Assembly: GCF_030028105.1 (NCBI RefSeq)
Contig: NC_092382.1
Coordinates: 53,085,764-53,149,763 of the forward strand
DNA length: 64,000 nucleotides
DNA from: Mobula birostris
Taxonomy: Eukaryota
Direction of reading: 5' to 3'
Each line of letters opens with the position of its first letter. The stretch's first letter is position 1. Position numbers and translations under genes: made by a program. Under the pieces are notes generated by a model. The model saw only the letters and a program-made list of their open reading frames with translations. It was not told where the DNA came from and ran no database searches. Shown here piece by piece: positions 3,130-52,999 of this stretch.

Positions 3130-3456
3130 GCTCCCCCACAGGTGACGTCACACATGGTTCCCCCCGTGCGTAACTGACGTCACACACGCGCTGCTCTGCT
3201 CGTGCTGAGGCGGTTTAACGGCTGAGCTACCGACCACGAGACCCCTCCACCCCTCACCTCCGAGGCGATGTCAATCACTGTTTCCGCCCAATAGCGGAGG
3301 CGGACCAGCCGAGAGGGCGTTACCCCGCTCAAAGAGGAGCAAACCTCAAAGTAAATGTCCGCTTTCTGATTTATTTCCATTTCCCTCCGAGGGAAGTTGG
3401 GACGTTTGTGAAGCGTCTCCTGCGGCCGGAGTCTGATGTGTCGCTGAGAGGTAGGA
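3130..3456 (+). promoter_or_regulatory. CpG-island-type promoter and putative first exon
   Basis: Two TGACGTCA (CRE) palindromes at 3143 and 3175, a GC/CCAAT box ccgcccaat near 3284, and a donor-like GAG|GTAGG at 3450/3451. Confidence 0.5.
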
Positions 3457-3749
3457 GGAGACCGCTCGGCCCGTCGGTTTGATGCCGGTTCCCCGGGGAG
3501 GGAGAGGATGAAGACGGTGAGAGAGGGGGCGGACAGGATGTTTGTCCCGGTGGGGACAGGAGGGGCTCATCTGTGGAAATGTCTGAGCCCACGGTGGTGG
3601 CGATTCACCACATTGGGGGCAAACACCGGCAGACTGTTGCCCTGCAAGCGGGGCCAATGGTCCGGGCAAAGTGACAATTATTTGTGTTTTGTTGAGATTG
3701 CACCGGGAATATGGTGTAAAATCCCGCTCCCCACACTAACACGGGTTAT

Positions 3750-4010
3750 ACAGACCAAAGAACAAACTGCCGGAGGAACTCAGTGGGTCGGGCAGCATCT
3801 GTGGAGGGAAATGGACCGTCAACATTTCGGGCCGAGACCCTCCCTCTGGACTGAGAGTGGACGGGAAATAGTCCGAGAAAAGAGGTGAGGGGTGGGGATG
3901 GGGCAAGAGCTGGGGAGTGAGAGGTGGGTCCAGGTGAGGGGGAGGTGGGAAGGTGGAAATAGTGACAGGGGTGGGAGGTGAGTGGTTGGGGCAACACGGG
4001 GCTGCAGAAG
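3750..4010 (-). mobile_element. Penelope-like terminal fragment
   Basis: ggaggaactcag...ggcagcatc...tttcgggccgagaccct is shared with the other Penelope ends; the hammerhead motif is degenerate. Confidence 0.75.
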
Positions 4011-4059
4011 ATGGAAATTAATTCCATAGAGGATTAACAGAGAGGTTAGAGAGTATTTG

Positions 4060-4500
4060 TTATAGAGGGTGCAATGAAGATTCACCAGACTGATCCCTGG
4101 AGTGGTGGGTGATCATATGAAGAAAGATCAAATGTGATAACCCTTTCATTTAGAGAACCGAGAACTGAGAGGTGAACACATTGAAATGCACAACATCATT
4201 ACCGGTTGAACCAGGGATCCCAGTCTCTGAAAAAGGGGTTGGACTGTCCAGGACTGAGATGAGGGAAAATGTCTTCACTCCAAGAGTGGTAAATGTCTGT
4301 AAATCCCCACCCCAGAGGGCGGTGAAGATTCGGTGATCATCCTCACATAAAACAGAGGCCAGCAGATGTGTGGAGACTGGAGGGATCGAGGAAATGAGGA
4401 TCGGGCAGAAACATGTGGCTGAGATGGGAGAGCAGCCGTCATCTTGTTGATGGTTAGAGGGGCTGAATGGCCACATCCTGCTGTTTCTCACTTGATGTTT
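4060..4500 (+). mobile_element. Degenerate CR1 3' fragment
   Basis: agattcaccagactgatccctgg, ttcactccaagagtggtaaat and gggctgaatggcc resemble 380-860. Confidence 0.7.
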
Positions 4501-5539
4501 CAGTGTTGCTGTCCAGTGAGGCCGGGGGACTGTGAATAGAAATGAGTGTTTTTAAACACAGACTGATTTAAATGAAACCTGCACATTTCCTGTTTGGGTC
4601 TGAATTGTGTGTTGGATCGGAATGGGAATTGAACCCTTGACTCTGTGACTTGGAGGTGGAGGGAAAGGGAGAGGGAAGATATGGAGGGAAAAGGTAACTA
4701 CGTATCTGGTGGCAGTGGAATAATGTGGAAAATGCAGTGGATGGGTTGGGCAGCGGGTGAGGGGTGAGGAGCAGAGTCACCGGTTCAGGTGGGAGACCCT
4801 CCACCCGTCACCTGATCCCGTTTCCTGTTCACATTTCCCTGCAGATCTGTAGCATCTGTCGGTCACTACTCTACATGTCCGTGTAGCTTCATCTTTCGCC
4901 CATTCAGACAAGGCAGTGAGATCCGGATCTGTCACGTCCTCTTGTCGTGGGTGGACAATATGTTTTTTTTCTGCAATATTTTCAGCATGTTTCATTCCAC
5001 TGTTATTACCTGCTGAAGTGCAGCCAATGTTTCTGTGTGTATGACCAATTTGTGTGAGAGTTTAGCCTTTTCTATTTATCTGAGCTTCTCATAAACGTGT
5101 AGTTTACTTAAGCTTCACTCTAGAATTTCCAAAGCAACAACCCAGTCAGTATTTAGTTCCACACAATTAAAATAGTTTATTATATTTTTTTTATTTTGTA
5201 TTACTTATATAATTTAACTGTTTAATATGCATATTCTTATCTTAAATCACATTTGATAAAATCTATTGTTATGAATTGGGTTCTATTGCTGCCGCAGAGA
5301 CAACAAATTTCATGACATATGCCGGAGCTATTAAACCTGATTCTGATTATCGGTATGGGAGACCCACCACCAGTCACCTGATCCCAGTTACCGCAGATTG
5401 TAATGCGAGATTGAAGCCTTTTCTATTTATCTGCATTCTACAGAAATAACAAAAGTTAAGTTTCCTTCTGTGGTTCCAAAGCAGCTCAGTCTGTCTAACA
5501 TTTCCACACAATTAAAATGGGGAATTTGTTTATTTTTAT

Positions 5540-6275
5540 CACGTACTGAGCTACAGTGAAATTCTTGCCCGACATACCATCCACACAGATCAATACATTA
5601 CAATAGTACATTGAGCTGATATACATCAAAACAATAACTGTAACAAAGCATTATGGCTGCAGAGAAAGTGCAGTGCAGATAGACACATGGCGCAGGGTCA
5701 CGTCGAGTTACATTGTGAGGTCGAGTCCATTTTTTTGGCTTATAACCGCAGACAGGAGGCCGTCCTTGAGGCTGGTGGTACGCGCTTTAAGGCTTTTGTA
5801 TCTCTTCCCTGATGGGGGAGTGGGGTTGCAGCAAGAACGTCCAGGTTGTGAGGGTCTTTGAGTACATGGTCTGCTTTTCCGACGCAGGGGAAGTGTAGGA
5901 AGAGTCCATGGAGGGGAGGCTTGTTTCTCTGATGTTCTCTGCTCTCCAAAGTTCTCTGCAGTTCCTTGCAGTCATGGGCAGAGCAGTAGCCATACGAAGA
6001 TGTGAAGTATCGACAAGAAGCTCAGAGACCTCGGCCTTCACCCTGCCTTGTGTCGCTGGATCCTGGACTTCCTGTCAGATCGCCGGCAGGTGGTAAGAGT
6101 GGGCTCCCTCACCTCTGTCTCTCTGACCCTCAGCACACATACCCCACAGGGTTGTCTCCTTGCCCCCTCCTTTACTCTTTTTATACCCATGACTTGTGTC
6201 ACCACCCACAGCTCCAATCTACTAATTAAATTTGCTGACGACCCTACATTGATTGGCCTAATCTCAAATAATAAC
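5540..6275. mobile_element. Rex1/Babar-like LINE fragments: minus about 5540-6000, plus RT fragment about 6005-6275
   Basis: Plus-strand peptide CRWILDFLSDRRQVVRVG...PQGC..., IKFADDPTLIGLI; it abuts the truncated end of the Gypsy RT. Confidence 0.75.
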
Positions 6276-7799
6276 TTTCAATCGATCAAATGCATCCTGA
6301 CAAGGCTCGGTCCAAACAAACTTTTCACCCTTCTTCAGGAGATTAGTCAGAGGAAGAGCGATATCAGCAAAGTTCTTACAGAACTTACGATAATATCCAA
6401 TCATTCCCAGAAACCTTCTGAGAGCCTTCATACCAGTCGGATTAGGAACTTCAGAAATTCCCTGGACTTTTGCCTGAACAGGAGCCAACTTGTCTTGACC
6501 TACTACATAGCCAAGATAGGTCACAGTGGCATGGCCAAATTCACTATTAACTGTAAGGTTGGCTTGGGAAAGCCTGTCAAACAGCTTTTCTACTGCAGAG
6601 ATATGCTCTTCCCAAGTGTCACTCCCTGTGACTAAGTCACCAATATAGGCAACTGCGTGTTCTAACCCTCGAATTACAGAATCAATCATTCTCTGGAATG
6701 TTCCTGGAGCATTTTTCATTCCAAATGGCAAAACATTGTATTCATACAACCCAGTAGCTGTCACTAACGCGGAAATTTCTCTACCTCCGTCTGTCAATGG
6801 AACGCACCAATACCCTTTCAACAGATCAATCTTTAAGAAATTTAGCTTTTCCAACCTTATCGAGGCAATCATCCACCATAGAGATAGGATAGGCATCTGT
6901 TTTTGTTACTGCATTTACCTTCCTATAGTCAGTGGAAAATCTAACACTACCATCAGGTTTGGGCACAATAACGCAGGGTGAGCTCCAATCTGATTTTGAA
7001 GGCCTAATAATACCATTTTTCAGCATATATTCAATTTCTTACTCAGCCAATTTACGCTTTTCTACGTTCATGCAATATGGGTGCTGTTTAATTGGTTTGG
7101 CTTGACCAATATCTACGTCATGTACTGCGACCGTGGTTTGCTTGGGAACGTCGGGAAATAAATTTTTAAACTTCAGAATTAATTTCTCAGCTGTTGTTCT
7201 TGCTTTGGCTGCAGATGAGCCAACTTGTTATCAATGTTTTCCAGAACAACCAAGTTCATTAGCCTAACTGGGACCATGTCTGGCTTGTGAAAAATCTCAG
7301 GCTACGTCCACACTAGACCGGATAATTTTGAAAACGCAGGTTTGGCGTAAAAACGCCAGGTGTCCACACCAGGCAATTTTCAAAATACCTCTGTCCTCAT
7401 TAGAATGGATATTTGGGTGAATCTCCTCCAACTGGGCATGCGCAAGACACACGGAAAAAAATCAAAGAGGAAACGGTGTACTTGGTGCGCGTTTGTCCAG
7501 TTGGACTAGAGAAACTTAAATGGAAATTGCCAAACAAAAGACCTGGTGCGCGTTAGTCCAGAAACGTTTTCTACAGCCATAGTCTCTTCACCGATGAAAG
7601 GGACGACAGGTACAACTAAATGGAACAAGGCTTGTTACTAGGCAAAAGTGAAATTTGCTGTTACCTCATTTGTTTGCCTTTACCTTTGCCATGTCTTTGT
7701 GTATTAATTTGGTGTATTTAACATGTGCAATAGAATGAGTTACTGGGCAAAGGTGACAATTGCATCTATTGAATGTTTGCACAAGCAATACATTAATCA

Positions 7800-8183
7800 T
7801 ATTACACAAGCATGGGTGAACCCAAGTGCAGAACAGGGGCGTGGGGACAGAGTCGGGAGTCGTTATCACCGTAGCGAGTGTGGAATCGGTTTCCAGGGGA
7901 GTCTTTACCTGAAGTCTTGGGTTTGGAGAGAATCCAGGAGCGATGCTATACTTAGAACTAACAGTCCTAAGAACCATGAACGAAGGTTACTCACACTGGC
8001 GTCGACCAACGAACTGTCAGCTCGTTGTTGTGATCACAGGGTCTTTATCCTGCATTTTCTGATGGAAAGCAGGTGTGTGTGTGTAAGTGGAACCTGGGAA
8101 TGATTGGAAATTAAACGAGGGGATTGAAGCCCAATTCCTGAGGTAAACAGTAAGGTGGGGGATTGCCAGAAGGGTCCGTGACA
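7800..8183 (-). mobile_element. Solo Gypsy-type LTR nested in the Harbinger
   Basis: The minus strand starts tgtcacgg and contains cacacctgctttccatcag, as does the LTR at 26435. Candidate 5-bp TSD AATCA/AATAA. Confidence 0.6.
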
Positions 8184-8384
8184 AATAAAGTGCCTTGTTA
8201 AATGTATAAAACATGTCTGCATCAGTGTTATCTTGTATTTCCATACAATGTTACATTAGGCTGTTACACATCCATTGTCAAAGAAGTACTTGCATAAATA
8301 GGTAAACTACCTTCATACAAGCAAGGACAGAAAACAGGGCAAAGTAAGTATACTTATTTATTCAGTAAGGTACGGATCAAAGTA

Positions 8385-8525
8385 GCTCCCCCACGGCAAG
8401 CCAGGACGGAGATAATGAGGAGGAATCGGTGAATCTGTCTTTGATTCTCAGAGAGATTCATGAGTTCCGACAAGATAACAACAAACAGCTGGAAGATATT
8501 AAAGGAGAAATAGTAAAAACTCTGT
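8385..8525 (+). mobile_element. L1-like ORF1 N-terminal fragment
   Basis: Translates as EEESVNLSLILREIHEFRQDNNKQLEDIKGEIVKT, resembling the coiled-coil start of fish L1 ORF1p. Confidence 0.55.
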
Positions 8526-8539
8526 GTACGTACATCTAT

Positions 8540-9055
8540 TGAAGCTTCTGGACACATCTTCAGTGATGTTCCTGGAATCATCGGGTGTTTCGGGTCTTTC
8601 AACATCATACAACCTCCTCCAGGTGACCCAGCCGGGGCTGATCAGGTCCCAGCTTGTGTCCAGATGGCTAGCTACTTACGAATCCATGGCTCCCCTCTTT
8701 TGAGCCACAGCCATCTTGAGGCCCTCTCTGCCGCATCAGTGGTACTGCGGATGGCTCTCCTCTTCCCCTCTCCCTCGATGCCCAAAATGCTGAAAGCTCT
8801 AACTAAAGAACGGGCTACGAATCCCCTGCAACCAACCTCCACTGGGAGACACCTTGCTTTCCATCCAGCCTGCTGACAGTTGCTGACCAGTCCTGCGTAC
8901 TTGGAGAGCTTCCTTTCAAAGGCCTCCTCCAAGCTATCTTCCCATGGGACTGTCAGCTCCAGCAGCACCACTTGCTTAGTAGACTCAGACACTATGACAA
9001 CGTCTGGTCGCAGGGTGGTGGCTGCGATATGGTTGGGGAACTTCAGCTGCCCATC
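8540..9055 (-). mobile_element. RLE-endonuclease non-LTR retrotransposon 3' end (Hero-like)
   Basis: TTLRPDVVIVS...VVLLELTVPWE...ERKLSKY...PVEVGCRGF is a PD-(D/E)xK restriction-like endonuclease; the 3' UTR is self-complementary. Confidence 0.85.
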
Positions 9056-11409
9056 AGAAGTACTTGCATAAATAGGTAAACTACCTTCATACAAGCAAGG
9101 ACAGAAAACAGGGCAAAGTTAGTATACTTACTTATTCAGTAAGCTATGGGTCAAAGTATTTGGTAAGTACATTTCTAACTCTTCTGGCTTCAGTATTGTT
9201 TCTGTCTGTTCTGAAATTGTTAGGTTGTGTGGGGGGGGTTGCGTTCAAGAAAACAATGAAATGTCGCGCTGCCGCCATCTGTTCTGGCACGTCATGACAG
9301 CGTTTTTAAAAATATCCGTTTACCCCGTCCACACTGCTTTGCGCAATCGACGTTTACAAATTTACACACTCCGGAGGGCGTTGAAGAAAATCTCTGTTTT
9401 TGGGGGAGGAAAACACCATTTCAGTGTGGACAGAGGGTCAAAACGAAGACAGAAAGCTTTGGTTACGAATTTATCCAGTCTAGTGTGGACGTAGCCTTAG
9501 ATGAGTCAATTGTTTCATTTTCAGCATTGCCAGATTCATATATTTTGACAACAACACTCACAGATGCTGCCTGCTTGACAAAATAAGGCTTTATCATATT
9601 TATGTGTACCACCTGTGTTAGTTGACGTCGGTCGGGTGTTTTAGTAACATAATTCGCATCATTACTTTGAGAGACTATTTCATATGGTCCATTGAATTTC
9701 GCCTGAAGTGGATACGTCAACATTGGAAATAGGGCAAGCACCTTATTCCCCACCTCGTATTTTCTTCCGCAAGCCCACTTATCAAACCAACACTTCATTT
9801 TGTTTTGAGAAATCTTTAAGTTTTGTCTCACTAGACTACAAGCTTGGTGTAGTTTATTTTTGAACTTCAAAACAGTCTAACAGGTTAACATGTACATCCC
9901 CATCAAACCACTGTTCCTTTAACAAGGCCAAAGTTCCCCTCACTCTATGACCAAATACAAGTTCAAAAGGACTAAAGCCCAGTAATTCCTGTACCGGCTC
10001 TCTTACTGCGAACAAAAGCAAATGTATTCCTTCATCCCAGTCTTTTCCATTTTCAACACGGTATGTCTTAATCATTGTTTAGAGGGTAGAAGGAAATGTT
10101 TCTAAAGCCCCTTGTGATTCCGGATGGTACTCAGACAATGTAATTTGTTTAGCTCCCAGTTCATAAAATACCTGCTGGAACAATCCAGGTGTAATATTAC
10201 TTCCTTGATCAGACTGGATTTCTTTAGGTAAACCAAATAAAGTAAAAAACCTGTTAAGAGCTTTCGCCACAGTTTTAGCTTTAATATTTCTGAGAGTTAT
10301 TGCTTCTGGGAATCTGGATGCAGTACACATAATATTTAGCAAATACTGATGGCCAGATTCAGTCTTTGGCAATGGGCCAACACAATCCACTATAACTTTG
10401 GAAAAGGGTTCACCGAATACAGGTATAGCCAGAGTGGGCCACTGGGGTGACCTGATTAGGTTTACCCACAAATTGATAAGGGTGACAGGTTCTGCAAAAG
10501 GTCACAACATCTTTCCTTAAATTAGGCCAATAAAATTGTTCCATAATCCTGTTTACCATTTTATTCACTCTGAAATGGCCACCTCAGGGCATACTGTGGG
10601 CCAAAGCTAAAATTTTAGTCCTATAAACTTTAGGGACAACAACTTGGTGAACAATTGCCCATTCCTCACTCACAGGTATAGCAGGTGGCCTCCACTTCCT
10701 CATTAACACTCCATCCTTGAGATAATAGCCAACTGGTACTTTCTTAATCTCATTATCTGAGAAAGCTGTTTCTTTTAAAGCTTCAATCTCAGGGTCTTGG
10801 TTCTGTTCTGCTATAAACTCCTTCCTAGACAGGAATAAATCTTTCTTATCAGACTAACTACCTGAGTCCTGTTGAAACAAAGAAGGTAGAAGAGTCCCTG
10901 ATAAGTCATCATAACCTGAATCCCGATTTTGGCTGTCATGGGTATCAGAATCATGCTGCACAGAACTGTCTGCATTGGCAGACTTTTTAGCCATACTTTG
11001 AGTTACTGCGCAGGAAGGATAAATGTTAAAATCCATCTGTGGGTCGTCAGTGGTTGGCTTAGTTGTCAACTGCACTGCAGGAACGACTTTACCATCTGCC
11101 CGGTCATTCCCTAACAGCAAAGTAACATCTTCCACCGGTAAACTGGAGCATAATCCAATCTTAACAGGTCTCGAAACCAACCCTGACTAAAATTACCCTG
11201 TGCAGTGGCACAGAAACCATGCCACCCCCAATGCCTTTAATAAGATTTACCTCACCTATGTTAGTCTCATCATCAAACTTTAGAACACTGTCTAATGTAA
11301 GTGACTGAGAAGCCCCAGTATCTCAAAGAATTTTCATAGGTACCAGGGTTGACCTTTCCTTTACTAATACAAACCCATCTGACATAAAGTGATCGAATAC
11401 CTTCTGAAC

Positions 11410-11841
11410 AAGAGGAATTCTGCAGATGCTGGAAATTCAAGCAACACACATCAAAGTTGCTGGTGAATGCAGCAGGCCAGGCAGCATCTCTAGGAAGAGG
11501 TACAGTTGACGTTTCGGGCTGAGACCCTTCGTCAGGACTAACTGAAAGAAGAGCTAGTAAGAGATTTGAAAGTGGGAGGGGGAGGGGGAGATCCAAAATG
11601 ATAGGAGAGGACAGGAGGGGGAGGGATGGAGCCAACAGTTGGACAGGTGATTGGCAAAGGGGATATGAGAGGATCATGGGACAGGATGTCTGTGGAGAAA
11701 GACAAGGGGGAGGGGGAGAACCCAGAGGATGGGCAAGGGGTATAGTCAGAGGGAGAGACGGAGAAAAAAGGAGAGTGAGAGAACAAATGTGTGTATAAAA
11801 ATAATAATAAATAACGGATGGGGTACGAGGGGGAGGTGAGG
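11410..11841 (-). mobile_element. Penelope-like 3' terminal insertion with a 16-bp TSD
   Basis: cgaataccttctgaac at 11394-11409 and 11842-11857; the insert matches the reverse complement of about 56560-56965. Confidence 0.92.
11504..11539 (-). ncRNA. Minimal type I hammerhead ribozyme motif (Penelope)
   Basis: AGUC-CUGACGA-A-GGG UCUCAG CCC-GAAAC-GUC-AACU. The core is intact; stem I has one mismatch. Confidence 0.75.
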
Positions 11842-13135
11842 CGAATACCTTCTGAACTCAGTCAGACCTCTCAGTCCTTAACTGAGCCTCAACAGAATGT
11901 GGGTTTATAGGTGCTTCAACATACTGATCACAGGCATTTGGAACTGACTCCTTTTCCTTTATCTTCTTCAGGATGGAAAAATTAAGACATCATATGACCA
12001 GCTTTCTTACAATAGTAACAAGTAAGACCAGAATATTTCTCCTTCAACTGCTTCCCTTCATCCTTACTCTTGTTATTAGTTCCAGCATTAATTTCTGGTT
12101 TACCCTGGTTATCCCTGCTACTCTTTTGGAAGCTTTTATTCAGGGTGAACTCATGAGTTATGGTTAAAGCAAACTCATCTGTGAATCTAGCAGACTCCTG
12201 CAAAGTGGCAGCATCCTTTTCATCTAAATATGTCTTTATGTCATCAGGGACGCACCTTTTGAATTCTTCAATTAAAACCAACTCTTTCAAGCTGTTAAAA
12301 TCATCATTTACATTTTTATATATGTGCCAGTGGTCAAAACACACAAACTTCTCATAAGCAAATTTCATACAAGTCTGGTTCAGAGATTTCCTCAAATTTC
12401 TAAACTTTCCAACTCGTAAGCTTTGAGCACAGCCTGTTTCACTGTGTCATAATCAGCTGCTTCATCAACTGTCAAAGCACAGAATAGGCTTGCTGAGCCT
12501 TGCCCTTAATTACACTTTGTAAGAGAATAGGCCAACCCTCTTTTGGCCACTTTATACTCTGAGCAAACTTCTCAAAATGCTGAAAGTATTTATCAACCTC
12601 TGCCTCATCAAATGGAGGTACCAATTTAACTTCCCGACTGGACTCAAACTTATCACCAGAGTCTAACACTAGACCCCTTTGCTGCAATCTCTCTTATCTT
12701 TTCCAGCTCAAACAGCCTCTGTCTTTCTGCTTCCTCCCTGTTTTTCTGCCTCTCTAGCCTCAAACTGCCTCTGCCTTTCCACAGCCTCCATCTTTAATTT
12801 TTCTAACTTGTACGGGAGCTCAAGCTCACTAAGTTTACTTTCCAGAAACACCTCCAACTCTTCCACTTTAAACACACCCTCATATACATAATGTTCAGCT
12901 ATTGTCCTCTGCATCTGTGCCTTCCTCATTGTTTATTTCACCTTAGCAAGTTCTAACCTTTTAGCAATACTCAACAACTCAATCCTTCTGGCGTCTTCTA
13001 ATGCCTCAGAGGTTGGTGCTTCCAGAAATCTATCAACATCCATTGCTGGTGATTTTCCACACACAAATAAATCAAAAGGGATTTCCCCAATGAAATTGAT
13101 AATTAATCAATCAATATGCCCCCAAATTTGTTCAT

Positions 13136-13155
13136 ATCCCAGACGCAGGCCCTAA
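13136..13155 (-). promoter_or_regulatory. Primer-binding site, tRNA-Pro-like (degenerate)
   Basis: Minus strand TAGGGCCTGCGTCTGGGAT versus canonical Pro PBS TGGGGGCTCGTCCGGGAT, located just inside the LTR. Confidence 0.65.
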
Positions 13156-13158
13156 TTT

Positions 13159-13965
13159 TGTTACGAACCGTAATGCTTTAGAAACGAACCAGCAGCAATA
13201 GACTGGAGTCTGGTTTTGATGTGAAAACCACTATCTTTATCAGTGTCTACTTATAAATAATAACTTAAGCAAGATAAACAAAAGTTAACAGTGTTACGTG
13301 TATATATGTGTGGAAGTATTACTCCCAAGCTATTGAACGCAGGGGAAACAAGGCTTAGGGTTTTGAGATGATAAAGTATGAAAGTTCAATTCATCCATGG
13401 AATAGGTGATGAGACAGAGATATTTGTAATCCAGGGTAAATGTCCAGAGGAGGGAATCATGTCGAATTCCACAGGTTCCACGGTGGTAAAACAAGAGAAC
13501 AGTCGCTGTAGATTTTATCCGTCATCGTTCCAAATCCACATACGAATTATCACCGAAAGTGACTTGTCACAAGGGGTATCGTCCTCAAGTGAATTCCCAC
13601 ATCACACGCAGTCAAGGGTTAACACACAACTGGTCTTCACAGGATACCCCAAATCCAATCCACTCCTATAGTTCAAAAGAGGTGATAACCACACATTCGA
13701 TGTACACTGAATCGATAATTAACCCACCCTTGTGGGCATAGGAAAGTTCTAAACAGTGACCCTTGGCCACTAGTTCCTTTGTTTCGATCCTTCCATTTTA
13801 CCTCCTTCGTCTCTGTCTGACTCTGAGTGTCCGTGTCCTCGGTTAAATCTAAACAAGCTGCAAGCAATGTAAACAAGCCGTAAGTCAGACTGATTCACCT
13901 TCTTAATCTCTCTCTCTCTTTTAAAATGAATGTCCATAGCAAACAAAACCAAGGGATTCATAACA
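13159..13965 (-). mobile_element. 5' LTR of the Gmr1-like element (807 bp)
   Basis: TG...CA ends with an inverted repeat (tgttacgaa / ttcataaca, 8 of 9 match), followed on the minus strand by a PBS and gag. Confidence 0.88.
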
Positions 13966-15346
13966 ATGGCCACTCCCCAGTGTGAACTGACTGGTGTGCC
14001 AGTAGTTTGGAAGATTGAGTGAATCCTTTACCGCATTCTGAGCAGGTGAACGGCTTCTCCCCAGTGTGAACTCCCTGGTGTCTCTTTAGGTGGGATGCAT
14101 GAGTGAATCCCTTCCCACATTCTGAGCAGGTGAATGGCCACTCCCCACTGTGAACTGACTGATGTGCCAGTAGTTCAGATGACCGAGTGAATCCTTTCCC
14201 ACAGACTGAGCAGGTGAACGGCTTCTCCCCAGTGTGAACTCGTTGGTGTCTCTGTAGGGTGGATGAGTGAGTGAATCGCTTCCCACAGACTGAGCAGGTG
14301 AACGGCTTCTCCCCAGTGTGAACTCGCTGGTGACTCTGTCGGGTGGATGAATCAGTGAATCTCTTCCCACAGACTGAGCAGGTGAACGGCTTCTCCCCTG
14401 TGTGAACTCGCTGATGATTCTGCAGGTTGGATGACTGAGTGAATCCCTTCCCACATTCTGAGCAGGTGAACGGCTTCTCCCCAGTGTGAACTCGCTGGTG
14501 ACTCTGCAGGGTGGATGACTGAGTGAATCCCTTCCCACAGACTGAGCAGGTGAACGGCTTCTCCCCAGTGTGGACTCGCTGGTGTCTCAGTAGGGTGGAT
14601 GACAAAGTGAATCCCTTTCCACAGTCCGAGCAGGTGAATGGCTGCTCCCCAGTGTGAATTCGCTGGTGAGCCATTAGGTCAGATGACTGAGTGAATCTCT
14701 TCCCACAGACTGAGCAGGTAAATGGCTTCTCCCCAGTGTGAACTCGCTGGTGACTCTGCAGGTTGGATGAGTGGGTGAATCCCTTCCCACAGACTGAGCA
14801 GGTGAATGGCTTCTCCCCAGTGTGAACTCGCTGATGACTCTGCAGGTTGGATGACTGAGTGAATCCCTTCCCACAGAATGAGCAGGTGAATGGCTTCTCC
14901 CCAGTGTGAACTCGCTGGTGACTCTGTAGGGCAGATGAATCAGTGAAACTCATCCCACAGACTGAGCAGGTGAACGGCTTCTCCCCAGTGTGAACTCGAT
15001 GGTGTCTCTGCAGGGTGGAAGAGTGAGTGAATTTCTTCTCACAGACTGAGCAGGTGAATGGCTTCTCGCCAGTGTGAACTCGATGGTGTATCTGTAGGTT
15101 GGATGACTGAGTGAATTTCTTCCCACAGACTGAGCAGGTGAATGGCTTCTCCCCAGTGTGAACTCGATGGTGTTTCTGTAGGGTGGATGAATCAGTGAAT
15201 CTCTTCTCACAGACTGAGCAGGTGAACGGCTTCTCCCCAGTGTGAACTCGCTGATGTGTCAGTAGTTGAGATGACAATGTGAATCTCTTCCCACAGTCCG
15301 AGCAGGTGAATGGCCGCTCCCTGGTGTGAACTCGCTGGTGAGCCAT
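13958..15346 (-). CDS. Tandem C2H2 zinc-finger protein, 16 complete fingers, C-terminus truncated by the LTR
   Basis: 16 repeats of CxxC-x12-HxxxH with TGEKPF linkers. The last linker reads TGEWP-LL-stop, where the final codons and TGA come from the LTR start TGTTATGA. Confidence 0.9.
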
Positions 15347-15990
15347 TAGGCTAGATGAAAAAGTGAATCCCTTCCCACAGACTGAGCAGGTGAACAGCTT
15401 CTCCCCAGTGTGAATATGCTGGTGACTCTGTAGGATGGATTACAGTGTGAATCCCTTCCCACAGACTGAGCAGGTGAACAGCTTCTCCCCAGTGTGAATG
15501 TGCTGGTGACTCTGTAGGGTGGATTACAGAGTGAATCCCTTCCCACAGACTGAGCAGGAAAATGGTTTCTCTCCTGCGTGAACTCGCTGGTGTAACATTA
15601 GGTCAGATGACCAAGTGAATCCTTTACCAGAAATTGAGCAGATGACCAGCCTCCGATTGGTGTGTCCACAGGTGGGATGACCGACTGAATCTTTTCTCAC
15701 ACACAAAACAGATGAATGGCCTTGCACAGTGTGATCTTGCTGATGACCCTCAACTGAGATGGCCAAGTGAATCCATTTCCACTGTCTGAGCAGGTGAATG
15801 GCCTCTCCCCGTGTAAAACGACTGGCATGCCAGTTGGTCAAATGACCGAGTCAATCCCTCCCCACAGTCTGAGCAGGAAGGATGGTCGATTGAATCCCTT
15901 GCTCCACTTCTTAAATATCTAGACAGAGACAGCAAAACTGGCGCGTCGTGTTTGAGATTCCTGTAGACAAATTCCTTCTTGTGTTTAACC
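15347..15990 (-). pseudogene. Degenerate upstream zinc fingers in the same exon
   Basis: In-frame fingers carry TAA at 15440-15442 and 15524-15526, with further decayed fingers up to about 15900. Acceptor-like tttttacag|gtt near 15990. Confidence 0.75.
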
Positions 15991-17473: not shown

Positions 17474-17560
17474 TCTTACCTGGAGCCGATTTTCCGAGGC
17501 CTTTAGTGTACTGCGCGCATGCGCGATATTCGGGAACAAACATCAACCCTGACGTCTGCG
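17474..17560 (-). promoter_or_regulatory. Putative promoter and non-coding exon 1 of the zinc-finger gene
   Basis: Donor CAG|GTAAGA at 17480/17479, NRF1-type palindrome cgcgcatgcgcg at 17514-17525, CRE-like tgacgtct near 17550; CpG-rich. Confidence 0.6.
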
Positions 17561-18738: not shown

Positions 18739-18949
18739 TGAAATTCAAGGGAGATCTCTTCTCCCACGGAGTGGTGACTGGTTGCAACCTGTCATCACAG
18801 GGAGAGTGAGAGGGGAAAGGCAGGGATAGATTTTGATATACTGATATGGAACGGAAATATGGGCAGGGATCAAATAGTCTGAGTGGCCTCCCTAGTTTAC
18901 ATTGTGAGTGTGGCAGAGACAGTAAGTACCTGAGACACGGGATTTGATA

Positions 18950-19377
18950 CAGAACTGATTTATCTTTCACAGATCCAGAATATTAAACACTCGTCTAGTT
19001 TAAGGCTAACATCGGCAGAACGGACTCCTCCAATGCTCAGTGACTAGGGTTCAGTCCTGGGTGCGATGAGCAGCCGCAAGAACTGCAGAATCTGACAGTA
19101 ACAGTCCCTCATGAACCTGCAGCTGCCTTCAGTCACCGTGATGGTTAAACATTTAACACAGAGCTGATCTGAACTTCCTCCCTGATGTGAAGTTGCTGGT
19201 GTTACAGCAGCTGGAATGATTGAGTAAAACTCTTTGCTCACTCCGGACAGAAATGTGGCCTCTATTTATAGTGAACTCAGTGGAGCATCACAAGGTGGGT
19301 TAACTGAATGAGTCTCTTCGCTCACACCGAGCAGGTGAACGGCCGCTTCCCAGTGTGAAGCTATTGGTGTATCTGCA
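18950..19377 (-). pseudogene. Remnant 3' end of a second C2H2 zinc-finger gene
   Basis: cacaccgagcaggtgaacggccgcttcccagtgtgaag reads HTGKRPFTCSV on the minus strand; cut by a Penelope insertion. Confidence 0.6.
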
Positions 19378-19989: not shown

Positions 19990-22900
19990 TTCGGTGGTGC
20001 AGGCACGCAGGCTGGTGGTGTTCGTCAGGAGCACTACGAAACGGGATGTCACCTTTAAGCGAGAGATGCCTCTGGAACATTTGTTCCCCATGATGGTGAT
20101 GCATAGCACCCCCGTGAGGCCAGTTGGGAGATTGCTGTTGGGACAAGGGCCTAAGTTGACCGCTGAAAGCTTTTAACTTTGGGGCATCACTTGTCCAGGA
20201 AGGTTGGAAGCGGAGGCTGGTGCAGAAGATGATGACGCTGACAGGTGTTTTTTCCACTGACGAGTTTGATGTGGGTTGTTCCAAGAGCATTCACCACACC
20301 ATACGGGTAACTGAGGATACTCCGTTTAGTGAAAGATCGTGGCGACTGGCTGCTGCAGATGTGGAAGACGTGCGGCAGCATTTGGGCAAGTTGAAGGAGG
20401 CTGGGATCATTACAGAGTCCCGAAGACCTTATGCCTCTCCTATCGTAGTGGCCCAGAAGAAGAATGGGAAGGTTGATATGTGTGTGGACTATAGAACACT
20501 GAACAGGCGCAGGGTCCTTGATCAGAACACAGACCCCGGGTCGAAGACGCGCTGGCCTGTCTGAGTGGGGCGAAGTGGGTTTGAGGACTGGATATTACCA
20601 GATCCCGATGAGTGAGGCCGATAAGGAGAATACAGCCTTCATTTGCCCTCTGGGATTTTACCAGTTCGAAAGGATGCCCCAGGGCATATCGAGGGCCCCT
20701 GGCACCTTCTAGAGGGTCATGGAGAAGACAGTGGGAGATAGGAACCTGCTCGAAATGTTAGTATATTTGGTTGACTCAGTATTTGGATCCATCTTGGAAG
20801 AACAAGAAGCGAGAATACTGAAGGTGCTCAACCGGCTGAAGCAGGAAGGGTTGAAGCTTTCCCTGGACAAGTGCCAGTTCTGGTAGCTATGTTGGACACA
20901 TTATCTCGCGGAATGGTGTAGCGAACACACGGCTAAGATCGAAGCAGTGACCACCTGGCCAAGGCCCCAGACCGTGAGTGCTCTGCGTTCGTGCCTAGGG
21001 TTCTATGGGTACTACCAGAGATTCGTGAAGGTCTACGCCCAGGTGAGTCATCCCTTGAACCAGCCTCTGCGTGGCTACCCTCCCCTGGGACAGAGGGGGG
21101 TGGGGGAAGGACGGGAGATGGGAGAATATTTGAACCCGTCAGAGCCCTTCGGACAGAGATGGGATGACAAATGTGAAGCGTCTTTTCTGTTACTGAAGGA
21201 GATGCTGACTCAGGCGCCGGTGCTGGCTTTTGCAAACCCCCGATTGTTCTACGTGCTACACACTGACGCCAGTCATGAGGGTTAGGGGCCGTTCTATATC
21301 AGGATCAGGGCGCTGGCCTGAGGCCTGTGGCATTTGTCAGCCAGTGTTTGTCACCTTTGGAGAGGAACTATCCCACTCAAAAGTTGGAGTTGCTGGCGTT
21401 GAAATGGGCGGTGGTGGATAAACTGGATGCCACAGACCGTCGGTGGCTGGCAGCCTTGTCTGTATATGATTTCAGCCTGAAGTACCGCCCCGGGAGCCGG
21501 AATGTCGATACGGATGCTCTGTCCCGACGGAGGCATGAGGAACTGAAGAAGTACGCGGAGTATGAGAGTGTTTCTGCATCCGGGGTGAAGGCGATGGGCC
21601 ATCTTGCTATCACGGTGCAGGCTGAGGAGAAGGAGAGGCCAGATCGAGCAGTGGACTCATTCGGGGCGTCCAATGACGCCGTGCCCCTAGTTTACAGTGA
21701 TCTCACTGCTCTGAAGACCACGCAGCTGCCGGAGTTAAACCCTGGGGAAGTGGCCGCTGCTCAGCGAGATGACCCGGGCATTGGCCCTGTCTGGCACGCC
21801 GTGGAAGAGGGGGATGTGACACAGGTGGAGAAGACTGAACACGTTTCAGTGTTTCTGTTATTGAGCGAATAACTACGGTTGAGTTTGAAAAACAAAAATT
21901 TATAGCGGGTAAGGTCACTCTCGGACCGACCTCGGTGTTGGCAGCTGGTCCTGCCTGAGAAGTATCGGAAGGTTGTCTTGAAGTCCCTCCATGATGGCTC
22001 TGGACATGTGGGGGTGGAAAAGACCTAAGGATTGCCCAAGGACCGGTTTTACTGGCCCCGAATGAGGACGGAGGTCGAAGAGTACTGCTAATCCTGCATA
22101 CGGCGGAATTCGCTGCCTGGGCAGGCTGTCCCTTTGTCCCACTTGCAGATTGCGGGGCCGTTTGACCTGGTGTGCATGGATTTCGTGGCCATAGAACCCG
22201 ATGCCAGCAACACGACGAATATCTTGGTCACCACGGTCCAAAACACCAGGTATGCTCAAGCTTTTCCTACCAAGGATCAGGGAGCGACTACAGTGGCGAA
22301 AATGCTATGAGAGAATATTTTTCGCCGGCGGATACATAGTGGCCAGGGACGGGACTTTGAGAGTAAACTCATCTATGAGTGACTGGGCATGCTCGGGGTT
22401 GAGAAATCGAGGACCACGCCCTATCATCCGCAGGGCGGTCCCCAGCCGGAGATGTTTAATCGGGACTCTGGAGATCAGCAAAAAGAACCGCTGGAGTCGA
22501 CATATTAGGCAAATGGTTCACCGTTACAACTGTACACGGAATGAAGCTACTGGTTACTGCCCCTATTATCTTATGTTTGGGGGCGAAGCCAGGTTGCCCA
22601 TTGACCTCTGTTTCGGGACTGATGCGGGTGAGGCATCGCCGACGCCTTACTTGAAGTATGTGTCTGATATGAGGAAAGAGCTGAAATGGGCTTACGAGTT
22701 AGCCGGGGAGGCGGCCGTCCGGCAGAATCGGGGAAATAAGAGAAGATATGAAACGAAAGTAAAGTTCTCCCAACTCCTACCGGGAGAACGAAGCCTCATA
22801 AGGAATCTGGGATTAACTGGAAAGCACAAATTGGCTGATCACTGGGCAGCCACGCCCTATGTGGTGGAGAGTCAGATGCCAAATTTACCGGTTTTCCGGG

Positions 22901-27844: not shown

Positions 27845-28734
27845 TAGAGATAGTGACCATATTCATCCTGTCTCGGGGAAAGTGTGGCCTCTCCAGAGTT
27901 GTCAAATGCAGCTGGTTGCCATGGCCGTGGCGGATCTGCTGGTTCTTATCCTGGATCTGATACTGAGCAAGGTTTCACTTACGCACATGCCAATCGGCGC
28001 TTTCTTCCGCTCAATGACCACGGTGTAATATCCACGCTGCTCTGATTTACACCGTCACCGACTGTTCGGTCTGGTTCACCGTCACGTTCACCTCTGATCG
28101 AGTTGTCGCCATTTATTGCTTGAAACTGAAAACAAAATATTGCACCGGGAAAACTGTGGCCGTGGTTTTGGGGACAGTGACTGTGATCAGCTGTTTAAAG
28201 AATATGTATTGGTGTTTTAGGCTCTCAGAGAACTGCACGTGGACAATCAACCCATTCATTTGTTCACAGAGAGTTCTTGTTTTCAGTTTCATAACTCAAA
28301 TTGACCTATTTTATTACTTCCTCGACCCTGTACTGACATTTGTGCTGGTTCTAGTAACGAACGGTTTCACCGCCAGGCACGTCTTAGTCACCAGCAGAGC
28401 TCGCAGGAGACTCAGGGTTCCCGGCAATGGACAGAGTACCATAGACCCGGAGATGGAGAAACGCAGGAAATGCCTCGTTTTATTGCTGATCACTTCGGGG
28501 AATTTCATCGTGCTATGGGCACCTTTCACTGTTTATTCTGCGTGGTATCGGCTGAATGATTTTATCAACCCTGTGCGTCCGCCCGAATCGCTGAGAGAGC
28601 TGGGCATCATTCTGCAGCTTCTGAGCTGTTGTACAAACACGGCCCTTTACGCCGTTACACAGACCAAGTTCAGGGAACAGCTACAGAATATGGTAAATTC
28701 TGCGCTTGCTGTCATTGTTGTGAGGAAGTCGTGA
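27845..28734 (+). pseudogene. GPR139-like GPCR exon-2 pseudogene
   Basis: Colinear with 40087-40985. It has a 1-bp and a 2-bp deletion with a TGA at 27958 between them, DRF changed to DRV, and no exon 1. The 3' flank 28735-29190 is homologous to 40986-41430. Confidence 0.9.
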
Positions 28735-38891: not shown

Positions 38892-40086
38892 GTGAGTCTC
38901 TGTCCAAAGGTAACTTATGAAACAAAATTTAACTGCACATTTTCCTTTTGGCCTGTACCTCTCATAATAATAATTAAGGCTGCTGACACACATACCAGTT
39001 GATAATTAAGCAAATACACTTCGATAATTTACTGAATCCAGGACTCCTGCCTAAGGAAATATGTGCTAACACTTGTGATGATCCACAGCGGGTTTACAAC
39101 AACAGTGTATCTTATTATCTGTCTTATTCCTGTAGAAAGTGTAACCTTATTGTGAGCATTCCTTCTCCATTTCTCCCTGGTCGTTTTAACCAACATCAGT
39201 CGGAAGACAAATTTCACACAAACTTTAATCACTTTCCAACTTTCACGAGCTGCCTGAGTTTCCACTGAAGCAAGGGAAGCATCTCTCCGCGAATGTAATC
39301 AGGACGTCCCTCTCCTGCATCTGACCGTCTTCCTCCCCACTGTGTTCTTAAAACTGCATATTCCGTTTGGGATCAAAAATTATAGAATGTATATTTCACA
39401 CCAGGTGCATTTGACGATGTTTAAAGCCTAGGTAACACATTTCTGAAAACGTGATAGACTTCCGTAAGTTCTTGAAATATTGATCGTGACGTATTTTTAT
39501 GGTGACAAATCAACTTCATTCTTGCTGAGAAAATAAAACGTATTTGAGAATATAATGAATATCATACGAATATAAAGGCAAAGCTACAACAAATAGACGG
39601 TGAGCCTCGTGGTATAATTTGAAGAGAATAACACTCCCTCAAAGTCGAGAAACGGGAAGAGAGGTGCAATAATTGTGATTTGTGCTGCTGCTCCATTTGC
39701 AAATCCCGTTGCCCCTGGTGACGGTCAGCGGCGGGAAGCTGCTCTTTATCCAGAGGTGGTTCCTGTCAAGGATACTAACTTCACGACAGTCGAGATGCCG
39801 CAGATTTAATCGATGATGCGCTATTCGGCCCTTTGCCTCAAAAAGTACGAAATCCATCAATCGTCAGCCATCGTTATCTGTAACCTCCGCTCTCTGTTTC
39901 TTTACCGATATTCGGTCCAACATATTGCATTGAGTGTACACACATTTGCAAAGCAGTTTAACTTTTGCGATTGTTTTATTCTGTCAGGTACGCTCATTCT
40001 TGACATTGTCACATACAGAAAAGTGGATTACTTTATATGTAAATGCTTCCTGATGTGTTTACCCTCATTGATTCCTATCTTCGCAG

Positions 40087-40985
40087 TGAACATGGTGACC
40101 ATATTCGTCCTTTCTCGGGGAAAGTGCGGCCTCTCCAGAGTTGTCACTTGCTACCTGGTTGCCATGGCAGTGGCGGATCTGCTGGTTCTTATCCTCGACC
40201 TGATATTGAGCAAGATTCCACTTATGTACGTACCAATCGACGTTTTCTTCCGATCAATGACCAAGGGGTGTAATATCCACGCTGTTCTCCTTTACACCGC
40301 AACCGACTGCTCCGTCTGGTTCACGGTCACGTTTACCTTTGATCGGTTTGTCGCCATTTGTTGCCAGAAGCTGAAATCAAAATATTGCACCGAGAAAACC
40401 GCTGTCGTGGTTTTGGGGACAGTGAGTGCCATTGGCTTTTTAAAGAATATTTACTGGTATTTTAGACTCTCGGGGTACTACACGTGGATAGCTGTTCCAT
40501 TTATTTGTAGGGGGAGAGTGCATTATTTGAATTTATTTATCGCGACTCAATTTGAACTATTTTATTACATCCTCACCCCTGTATTCCCATTTGTGCTGGT
40601 TCTGCTGACGAATTGCTTCACCGCCAGGCACGTCTTAGTCACGAGCAGAGCGCGCAGGAGACTCAGTTTTCCTGGCAACGGACAGAGTGCCAGAGACCCG
40701 GAGATGGAGAAACGCAGGAAATACCTCGTTTTATTGCTGATCGTCTCGGGCAATTTCATCTTGCTGTGGGCACCTTTCACTGTGTATTCTGCGTGGAATC
40801 GGCTGTATGCTTTTGTCACGTATGTGCGCCCACCTGATTCGCTGCGAGAGCTGGGCGCCATTCTGCAGCTTCTGAGCTGTTGCACGAACACGGCCCTTTA
40901 CACCGTTACGCAGACCAAGTTCAGGGAGCAGCTAAAGAATGTGGTAAAATCACCGCTCTCTCTCATGTTTGTGAAGAACTCGTGA
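40087..40985 (+). CDS. GPR139-like class A GPCR, exon 2 (spliced CDS 1080 nt, 359 aa)
   Basis: Acceptor cgcag|TG joins exon 1 in frame (LP-V-NMVT). Motifs: MAVADLL, SVWFTVTFTFDRFVAIC, FILLWAP, SCCTNTALY, KFRE helix 8. No disabling lesions. Confidence 0.92.
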
Positions 40986-49940: not shown

Positions 49941-50396
49941 ACCAACCTTACATTTAGAGTTTATATTTAGATATCATCCCCTCACAATGAACATTAATTG
50001 ACATCACGGACCAACCACTGAATGATTCAGATTGATTCCTCAATTCAGTTTTGTCTGGAGTATGTAATATCTGAATACAAACTGCCGCTACTCTCATCAC
50101 CTTTCTAATTGTATAAACAATAATATCCCTCATCGCGTTTGTTTAGAGAGATCCTCCAATTTTCCAGTTGCATGAGTTCAAAATTAACTGAGCCTCTGTC
50201 CCATTAATTATCAAGTGTCTGTTTCTGTAACGCTGTCCTTTTCAACCATTATTCGCTTGTTCTTTGTCCAGGGTCGGTTCTGTGTTGGCACAGCCGAACA
50301 TCTCGTTGACACTGACTAGGATTAGACCAAACACAAACAAGAGGAGCTCTGCAGATTTTAGAAATCCAAAACGCTGGAGGAGTTCTGCAGACCAGG

Positions 50397-52211
50397 CAGC
50401 ATCTATGGAGAAGAGTAAACTGTGGACATCAGCATCTATGGAGAAGAGTAAACTGTGGACATCAGCATCTATGGAGAAGAGTAAACTGTGGACATCAGCA
50501 TCTATGGAGAAGAGTAAACTGTGGACATCAGCATCTATGGAGAAGAGTAAACTGTGGACATCAGCATCTATGGAGAAGAGTAAACTGTGGACATCAGCAT
50601 CTATGGAGAAGAGTAAACTGTGGACATCAGCATCTATGGAGAAGAGTAAACTGTGGACATCAGCATCTATGGAGAAGAGTAAACTGTGGACATCAGCATC
50701 TATGGAGAAGAGTAAACTGTGGACATCAGCATCTATGGAGAAGAGTAAACTGTGGACATCAGCATCTATGGAGAAGAGTAAACTGTGGACATCAGCATCT
50801 ATGGAGAAGAGTAAACTGTGGACATCAGCATCTATGGAGAAGAGTAAACTGTGGACATCAGCATCTATGGAGAAGAGTAAACTGTGGACATCAGCATCTA
50901 TGGAGAAGAGTAAACTGTGGACATCAGCATCTATGGAGAAGAGTAAACTGTGGACATCAGCATCTATGGAGAAGAGTAAACTGTGGACATCAGCATCTAT
51001 GGAGAAGAGTAAACTGTGGACATCAGCATCTATGGAGAAGAGTAAACTGTGGACATCAGCACCTATGGAGAAGAGTAAACTGTGGACATCAGCATCTATG
51101 GAGAAGAGTAAACTGTGGACATCAGCACCTATGGAGAAGAGTAAACTGTGGACATCAGCATCTATGGAGAAGAGTAAACTGTGGACATCAGCACCTATGG
51201 AGAAGAGTAAACTGTGGACATCAGCATCTATGGAGAAGAGTAAACTGTGGACATCAGCACCTATGGAGAAGAGTAAACTGTGGACATCAGCATCTATGGA
51301 GAAGAGTAAACTGTGGACATCAGCACCTATGGAGAAGAGTAAACTGTGGACATCAGCATCTATGGAGAAGAGTAAACTGTGGACATCAGCATCTATGGAG
51401 AAGAGTAAACTGTGGACATCAGCATCTATGGAAAAGAGTAAACTGTGGACATCAGCATCTATGGAGAAGAGTAAACTGTGGACATCAGCATCTATGGAGA
51501 AGAGTAAACTGTGGACATCAGCATCTATGGAAAAGAGTAAACTGTGGACATCAGCATCTATGGAGAAGAGTAAACTGTGGACATCAGCATCTATGGAAAA
51601 GAGTAAACTGTGGACATCAGCATCTATGGAGAAGAGTAAACTGTGGACATCAGCATCTATGGAGAAGAGTAAACTGTGGACATCAGCATCTATGGAAAAG
51701 AGTAAACTGTGGACATCAGCATCTATGGAGAAGAGTAAACTGTGGACATCAGCATCTATGGAGAAGAGTAAACTGTGGACATCAGCATCTATGGAAAAGA
51801 GTAAACTGTGGACATCAGCATCTATGGAAAAGAGTAAACTGTGGACATCAGCATCTATGGAGAAGAGTAAACTGTGGACATCAGCATCTATGGAGAAGAG
51901 TAAACTGTGGACATCAGCATCTATGGAGAAGAGTAAACTGTGGACATCAGCATCTATGGAGAAGAGTAAACTGTGGACATCAGCATCTATGGAGAAGAGT
52001 AAACTGTGGACATCAGCATCTATGGAAAAGAGTAAACTGTGGACATCAGCATCTATGGAAAAGAGTAAACTGTGGACATCAGCATCTATGGAGAAGAGTA
52101 AACTGTGGACATCAGCATCTATGGAAAAGAGTAAACTGTGGACATCAGCATCTATGGAGAAGAGTAAACTGTGGACATCAGCATCTATGGAGAAGAGTAA
52201 ACTGTGGACAT
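50397..52211. repeat. 33-bp tandem array, exactly 55 copies
   Basis: Unit cagcatctatggagaagagtaaactgtggacat; 1815 bp = 55 x 33; only two variant types; embedded in a Penelope terminal sequence. Confidence 0.98.
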
Positions 52212-52224
52212 TTTGGGCAGAATT

Positions 52225-52226
<2 letters not shown>

Positions 52227-52257
<31 letters not shown>
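52227..52257. repeat. (CT)n microsatellite
   Basis: About 15 CT dinucleotides. Confidence 0.9.
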
Positions 52258-52259
<2 letters not shown>

Positions 52260-52999
52260 GTCCTGTTGCCTGAGCTGAAGCTTTTCTCCAGCACTATGTG
52301 TAGGATTAGACCACATCAGTTCCCAGTTTCTTCACTGTGTCTTTTGTTCTGGGTTCACAGCATCTCCTCTTCCACTCAACCACACCTCCCGCCCCCCCCC
52401 CGCCCCAGCAACTCTTTCTCTGAGAGCTAAAATTCTGACACTGAAAGTTAGTTCAAACGGGAAAACAAAAGCAAAAGTAGAGACAGAAGAGAAAAAGATC
52501 GCGAAGGAAAGGACAGGTAATGATGGGAACAGGAGTGCTTGATACCGACGAAATTATACTCCAAAAACAGACAGTTTTGTCAGAATCGGGAAGAAGGGGT
52601 GACAGGTTCGCCTCAGGATTCAATTTCAGTGTGGCGAGGGTGAGATGCAAAGGAGATTTTTCTGGGATGCTGAGGCCACTGGTGCCGTCGGGATCGACTG
52701 TAAATAGCTGTTTTATAACTGTAAGGCAACACACACAAAATGCTGGAGCAACTCAGCAGATAGGGGGCAACTTTGGAAAAAAGTAAACATTCAACTATTC
52801 GGGCCGACAATCTTCACGATTTCGTGTGCGTTCTGTATTTCGAGCATCGACCGAGTTTCTCATGCTTTGTTTGTAACTCTGTTCATCGTATTGTTTCCGT
52901 TTGCTCACAAGTGGGAGTACAGAATAGGGACATGAAAGCAGCTGAATTGTACCACTGCACAGCATTTATTTATATCCGCTGAATGAGTTTCAAAATCCA

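Follow-up and report, generated by a model that had tools for sequence, protein, structure and literature searches.

In young mouse clusters of KRAB zinc-finger protein (KZFP) genes, endogenous retroviruses (ERVs) were amplified by segmental duplication (Bruno et al., PMC11952569), and the zebrafish FiNZ-ZNF genes form a big zinc-finger (ZNF) expansion on one arm of chromosome 4 (Wells et al., PMC10547256). Retroelements of the Gmr1 clade have an integrase (IN) upstream of the reverse transcriptase (RT) as their hallmark (PMC8220671), and the SCAN domain is described as originating from the Gmr1 capsid (PMC4592553, PMC8321522). Here, we describe a 64-kb stretch of DNA from the ray Mobula birostris, taken as a whole and called the window, in which a Gmr1-type Gypsy element lies inside the coding exon of a C2H2 ZNF gene. 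Gene and element are both on the minus strand, and all coordinates are positions in the window unless a contig is named. Gene and element together form a cassette that recurs many times, almost always on one chromosome, and the long terminal repeat (LTR) of the element closes the finger frame.

Some host genes are known to draw their poly(A) site or terminal exon from an LTR. Like such gene ends, the LTR considered here lies in sense and offers a stop codon and an AATAAA; unlike them, it is shared by some 180 or more paralogues through one founder, and its use for polyadenylation is a prediction. ERV gain by segmental duplication in the mouse KZFP clusters is the closest precedent, since there too LTR elements were multiplied by duplication of gene blocks and copy groups with shared divergence lie in one region. 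The ray case differs in that a Gypsy element sits inside a coding exon, where a whole subfamily takes its C-terminus and its predicted 3' untranslated region (UTR) from it, and in that no KRAB or other effector domain was found in the ZNF exon of the family; the accessible text of the mouse account (PMC11952569) does not mention LTR-supplied gene ends. With the FiNZ-ZNFs (PMC10547256), whose accessible text gave no hit for shark, skate or SCAN in a term search, the ray family shares a big fish ZNF expansion in one repeat-rich chromosome region but not an effector domain, none having been found here. Compared with the Gmr1 clade (PMC8220671), the element agrees in IN-before-RT order, SCAN-like capsid, TG...CA LTR ends and relatives in Hypanus, Hemitrygon and Mobula, whereas it is dead, truncated in RT, reduced to a single LTR and multiplied without transposition. 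Literature searches found no account of a cassette of ZNF gene and Gmr1 LTR, although supplements, which lay outside the searches, could list it, and a term search of a mobulid genome preprint found no mention of zinc-finger.

We consider it probable that one Gmr1-type element inserted in sense into the last C2H2 linker of a ZNF gene and that the block of gene and element, already cut in RT, reached its roughly 180 or more sites by tandem and segmental duplication. The LTR would thereby close the frame and probably also furnish a 3' UTR with its poly(A) signal, and gag-pol would decay as passengers. The course of events would begin with a single insertion into the ZNF exon, as the one junction suggests. 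RNase H, the 3' LTR and the old gene tail were then lost ahead of most of the copying, to which the shared break attests, and copying proceeded as DNA including intron, promoter and flank, as seen in the sampled copies. Selection would hold the finger frames open in many copies, judging from the counts given below, and transcripts would end within the LTR.

The features at the junction are as follows.

13958-15346, minus strand: frame of 462 amino acids from an internal ATG at 15346, with 16 C2H2 fingers and no effector domain, its last two codons and TGA coming from the LTR (translation, profile search)
13159-13965, minus strand: 5' LTR of the Gmr1-type element, in the same orientation as the gene and predicted to serve as its 3' UTR (sequence and copy comparison)
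13236-13241, minus strand: poly(A)-signal site of the LTR, GATAAA in the window copy (alignment; AATAAA in 31 of 36 copies)
13141-13158, minus strand: stretch resembling a primer-binding site (PBS), directly after the LTR (sequence)

The finger frame closes with TGA at 13960-13958, two codons into the LTR, whose start at 13965 falls in the middle of a linker of the C2H2 exon. The first-pass annotation, made from the sequence alone, had claimed that the LTR breaks the frame in a linker and supplies its stop, and both points hold. The LTR is 807 bp long (13965-13159, TGTTATGAA...TTCGTAACA), its terminal letters are inverted at 8 of 9 positions, and the PBS-like stretch at 13158-13141 presumably resembles a tRNA-Pro PBS. 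Taken alone, an LTR-supplied stop would be unremarkable: the LTR reading frames stop after 1, 14 and 64 codons, the in-frame contribution being two codons and the stop, and in ZNF relatives outside the cassette, too, the stop is often located in a linker, with degenerate fingers behind it.

The junction is present in many copies. An exact 22-mer across it gave 65 matches and a degenerate pattern 126, with none for the reversed control in either case, and 99 of the 100 matches listed lie on contig C17. All of the best 30 LTR matches consist of finger, 5' LTR and PBS, with LTRs 84-100% identical; among 30 loci found by an LTR-start pattern, 28 have the same junction and two are related LTRs (71-76%) on other contigs. 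Merging the junction and LTR-start lists yields 113 sites in C17:0-27.8 Mb plus 70 junction matches elsewhere, and the resulting figure of about 180 junction sites is a lower bound, the LTR-start sites having been inspected in part. A 5' motif of the ZNF gene family has 699 matches; the junction occurs in at least 21 of 82 family genes at C17:0-12 Mb, and the LTR is still present in 8 of 40 sampled genes that lack the exact junction pattern. Such numbers indicate a founder cassette and not a one-off insertion.

An identical junction in many genes, with LTRs 84-100% identical, could also be produced by a site-specific retrotransposon that repeatedly hits the TGEWPF linker of ZNF genes, and related LTRs do occur in other ZNF exons (locus L128, described below). 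What separates this from copying as DNA is the far end of the element. Of 14 extended copies, 13 share one RT break together with the sequence that follows it (the fourteenth is interrupted earlier), the break itself has 159 exact matches, and no matching 3' LTR was found within 16 kb downstream of the 14 copies. A second LTR at L076 was considered as a 3' LTR and rejected, being only 80% identical and hence a separate insertion. The common break and the lack of an own 3' LTR in any copy examined indicate spread by DNA duplication rather than by transposition or site-specific insertion; neither target-site duplication (TSD) nor continuing fingers were found, flanks are shared, and the third-position excess expected from separate active lineages does not appear. 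Site-specific insertion is thus largely refuted, and we find it scarcely credible as the source of the copies. In the sampled copies the intron and the downstream flank are kept, and in 4 of 14 the arrangement is tandem, the flank being directly continuous with another family gene, at the first exon of the latter. The suggestion of the first-pass annotation that the ZNF gene and LTR were amplified as a unit is therefore borne out by the junction counts, the shared RT break and the shared flanks.

Among its relatives, the window matches C17:33.70-33.76 Mb over at least 58 kb at 99.95% identity and C17:58.06 Mb over about 18 kb at 95-97%. Clades of copies are distinguished by later insertions and deletions of their own, mean pairwise distances are 6-10% in every segment and the maxima 10-17%. 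LTR distances correlate with those of RT (0.75), flank (0.57), intron (0.36) and gag (0.21). Outside this genome, neither a search for relatives ending in LTR-derived residues (0 of 251 proteins, the matches being swamped by generic ZNFs) nor exact look-ups (10 of 10 blank) is informative on other species. In public runs from four coded organisms, between 13 and 57% of the sequence words are present, and one contig of organism D spans the LTR and 23 letters of the finger side, under the 31-letter bridging rule; on these grounds, the cassette is likely to be shared with other species.

Behind the LTR, the element and the copied flank comprise the following.

11985-13043, minus strand: decayed gag with several stops and frameshifts, SCAN-like segment at about 12407-12162 and CCHC knuckle at about 12023-11988 (profile search, alignment to P0128)
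11407-11850, no strand assigned: later repeat insertion between gag and protease, missing from most other clades (copy comparison)
9550-11409, minus strand: decayed protease and IN, with rve at 10501-10079 and p58_C/SH3 at 9876-9463 (profile search)
7300-9493, no strand assigned: nested later insertions between IN and RT, with inverted arms 7294-7343 and 9453-9502 and an inner insert at about 8384-9086 (self-comparison)
6265-7286, minus strand: decayed RT that breaks off at about 6265 against an unrelated repeat, the break identical in all long copies (profile search, copy comparison)
3260-6264, no strand assigned: flank downstream of the element, duplicated along with the cassette; in tandem units the first exon of the next ZNF gene adjoins the CpG-rich end of this flank (copy comparison)

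The assignment to Gmr1-type Gypsy elements is supported: IN precedes RT on one strand (rve 10501-10079, RVT_1 6905-6264), gag is SCAN-like, and LTR ends and the PBS-like stretch are in place. The order is colinear with P0128, an intact relative of 1581 residues in which SCAN is followed by integrase, then RT, then RNase H. P0128 served as the reference for gag-pol decay; the match to it runs out at residue 1443 of 1581. By protein search, the closest gag relatives are in Hypanus, Hemitrygon and Mobula. The repeat joined to RT at about 6265 is, we assume, LINE-like (a long interspersed element), and no RNase H, 3' LTR, TSD or remaining ZNF exon was found in the window. Further, a CpG-rich stretch at 3260-3450 and at 4843 (plus strand) has donor-like and acceptor-like motifs directed antisense into the Gmr1 remnant, and in the tandem units L042, L046, L048 and L055 some 180 nt separate it from where the first exon of the following ZNF gene lies, an arrangement that resembles a two-way promoter; the stretch could be a source of antisense RNA to the element.

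Fingers and retroelement proteins were compared in 47 cassette copies scored for finger frames and gag-pol decay; L078, with an eroded junction, was excluded prior to these counts, and L064, L105 and L137, which lack a start anchor, were scored from separate inspection. Against P0128, gag-pol has accumulated 281 stops and 162 shifts over 37,727 aligned codons, or 1.17 per 100. Its non-CpG changes per site at codon positions 1, 2 and 3 are 349/925, 322/938 and 273/903, so that third positions are no more variable than first or second, as neutral decay would predict; selection on gag-pol, or separate active lineages, had been considered from ratios of nonsynonymous to synonymous change (dN/dS) below 1 and was ruled out by this count. 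At the gag-pol rate, about 0.5% of finger frames would be expected to be open from the usual ATG to the LTR TGA, whereas 22 of the 47 are. Among the others, the stop falls in the last finger or linker in 8, an early break leaves at least 7 fingers readable from a later ATG in 11, and the frame is broken in 6. Fully open copies occur in 11 of the 20 LTR clusters. Because the copies share ancestry and were chosen by intact ends, these counts are not independent trials. In the last finger dN/dS is 0.31, and changes at codon positions 1, 2 and 3 are 14/25, 13/23 and 22/26, the third being highest. Taken together, the finger frames look to be under selection across the subfamily and the retroelement proteins do not.

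These results bear on the SCAN-like segment, which had been put forward as a fish-lineage counterpart of the SCAN-ZNF association. In SCAN-ZNF proteins the SCAN domain is in frame and N-terminal to the fingers. The ray locus is similar in that a Gmr1 gag with a SCAN-like segment lies beside a C2H2 gene, and dissimilar in that the segment is downstream, untranslatable and neutral. The peptide named in the first-pass annotation is present and matches Pfam SCAN (E 3.4e-5), at 24 bits and so under the cut-off of 27 bits; in P0128, which is 50% identical, the match reaches 43 bits at residues ~232-322, so that SCAN is an ordinary part of Gmr1 gag. One could read the locus as an incipient SCAN-ZNF fusion, in which the fingers and the gag capsid are co-opted jointly, as they were in the ancestor of tetrapods, and besides the weak profile match one copy, L057 (G000:C17:34.21 Mb), retains a 454-codon stop-free stretch of gag and protease including SCAN. 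That stretch is out of frame with the gag ATG of L057 itself and is probably due to chance, sister copies being broken there. The segment lies about 1.6 kb 3' of the ZNF stop, behind the LTR and a broken gag, and in all 38 copies with a scorable gag ATG (of the 47; 9 have none) the gag frame closes 14-165 codons past that ATG, short of SCAN. Changes per site at codon positions 1, 2 and 3 of SCAN plus nucleocapsid (NC) are 0.51/0.40/0.43, without codon bias, and the pairwise dN/dS of 0.66 for the SCAN segment is within the range of other dead segments. A fusion in progress is therefore very improbable, and the ray locus fails as an example bearing on SCAN-ZNF origin; on the origin of the domain it is uninformative, save that encounters between Gmr1 elements and ZNF genes are seen to be frequent.

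The window copy itself has the following features upstream of its open frame.

17480-17560, minus strand: putative non-coding first exon within a promoter rich in CpG, its donor GTAAG starting at 17479, upper bound approximate (inferred from sequence; a homologue heads the next gene in tandem units)
15599-15989, minus strand: 5' part of the ZNF exon with degenerate frameshifted fingers, likely 5' UTR, splice acceptor at 15990 (sequence, family-wide pattern)
15524-15598, minus strand: usual start ATG of the family at 15598, closed after 24 codons by TAA at 15526-15524 (sequence; open in sisters L062, L065 and L068)
15440-15442, minus strand: second in-frame TAA, inside a duplicated finger (sequence)

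The usual ATG thus yields merely 24 residues. The 16 open fingers that had been reported are real when read from ATG 15346, but two in-frame TAA codons (15526-15524, 15442-15440) precede them. Copies L056, L059, L061, L069, L072, L074 and L075 likewise have an early stop, and L056 and L061 also have GATAAA in place of AATAAA. The window copy is a member of a young subclade in which a nonsense codon comes early and the poly(A) signal is mutated, and it is probably either a pseudogene or the user of a downstream ATG. The earlier suggestion that the LTR-terminated gene may be selected appears to hold for the finger frames of the subfamily and not for this copy, which is a poor example of a selected gene. 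In family loci L101-L140 too, frameshifted degenerate fingers precede a start ATG located within a finger. At 18940-19377 (minus strand) there is a degenerate ZNF remnant of greater age, which has the non-LTR 3' tail of the family and is broken by a repeat at 19378.

Use of the LTR as a gene end is suggested by its sequence. The 31 AATAAA motifs among the 36 aligned copies lie at LTR +724, and in most copies this is the sole AATAAA within the first 900 nt. The LTR is no better conserved than its neutral neighbours, with a mean divergence of 9.5% against 7.8% in the intron, 6-8% in gag and 9.9% in the flank. No run holding the sequence is registered as RNA. In three presumed-RNA runs (organisms A, B and D), the ratio of summed contig depth between the 5' 590 nt of the LTR and the region of LTR end and gag leader is 6-9; one DNA run gives 1.0 (median 1.9). 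The pattern would agree with a transcript end inside the LTR but is not counted as evidence: contig depth cannot rank gene parts, and other LTR copies contribute to it.

Several observations weigh against our account. The 99.95% twin at C17:33.70-33.76 Mb could be an assembly duplicate, and the weak agreement of LTR distances with those of intron and gag points to some recombination or conversion among copies. Forty copies were drawn from junction or LTR match lists, which biases them toward intact ends. The dS of the last finger, 0.225, is twice the ~0.1 of pol; such inflation suggests finger exchange and makes the neutral expectation for open frames approximate. In ten gag-pol segments pairwise dN/dS is 0.51-0.87 and not 1, which we attribute, from the codon-position test and without simulation, to transition and CpG bias. 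As regards the gene end, 27% of hexamer windows in the LTR match or exceed the conservation of AATAAA, and neither a poly(A) tail nor a junction-spanning RNA contig was found among the listed rows, the runs being guessed to be RNA and their contigs short.

Other LTRs have entered the same family. One of them, a second LTR that occurs solo and is unrelated to the first, measures about 455 nt (TGTAAC...GTTACA, with a 4-nt near-duplication) and sits in the degenerate finger tail of another ZNF clade on C4, C5 and C17.

L123:1597-2055 (G000:C4:2.247 Mb), gene strand: second solo LTR (inspected locus)

It occurs in 11 of 40 sampled genes (L123, L103, L104, L106, L108, L110, L115, L122, L124, L130 and L131), its internal motif has 29 matches, and in L122 it supplies the stop. 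At L128 (G000:C6:38.456 Mb), a related Gmr1-type LTR, about 69% identical, lies antisense within the ZNF exon as an independent insertion. From these two cases, founder insertions carried by duplication are a general feature of the ZNF cluster.

The second solo LTR, marking its own clade in 11 of 40 sampled non-junction genes, is also what one would see under pure hitchhiking, in which the Gmr1 LTR is a useless lineage mark of an often-duplicated founder gene and transcripts end anywhere downstream; this departs from our account at the transcript-end step alone. Any insertion gives a stop, AATAAA is not specially conserved, and subclades without it or with early stops have expanded too. Open, selected genes, however, need some end, and the old 3' tail was lost with the 3' end of the element, and most copies have no AATAAA other than that of the LTR in their first 900 nt; we regard hitchhiking as somewhat unlikely. 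Another proposal makes the LTR tail a selected regulatory module that drives expansion of the subfamily through LTR recombination or better or coordinated expression, for example by coupling these repressors to how far Gmr1 elements are silenced. The junction is present in no fewer than a quarter of the family genes sampled (21 of 82), the LTR is retained while the interior is often deleted, though sampling was on the LTR, and a recombination role has been proposed for ERVs in the mouse clusters (PMC11952569). Its divergence, however, is not below that of intron, gag or flank, and another LTR-marked clade has expanded as well, which leaves this proposal quite unlikely. Distinctly improbable is its furthest form, in which about a quarter of some thousand ZNF genes share an LTR 3' UTR wired to Gmr1 silencing and the LTR also drives the duplications, a defence loop against transposable elements without KRAB. 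If true, small RNAs or repressors against Gmr1 would tune the mRNAs of the subfamily jointly, in a self-regulating loop yielding new fingers.

Elsewhere in the window are three rhodopsin-family 7tm frames (28018-28734 and 39810-40985, plus strand; 53171-53947, minus strand), two of them 80% identical, a near-perfect 33-nt tandem array of about 60 units at 50231-52430 that is open in three frames, and a second decayed Gypsy-type pol at 20160-21872 (plus strand; RNase H match 21279-21872). A weak GIY-YIG match (E 0.0013) at 55675-56559 (plus strand) is probably a Penelope-type fragment.

On the account given here, birth-and-death duplication would have turned one dead retroelement into the end that a subfamily of transcription factors has in common, and this across hundreds of genes in a cartilaginous fish. 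The neutral gag-pol passenger offers a built-in clock and control, with which duplications may be dated and selection on the fingers measured for each copy. Additionally, cassette and non-cassette clades allow a direct test of whether LTRs speed the growth of ZNF clusters.

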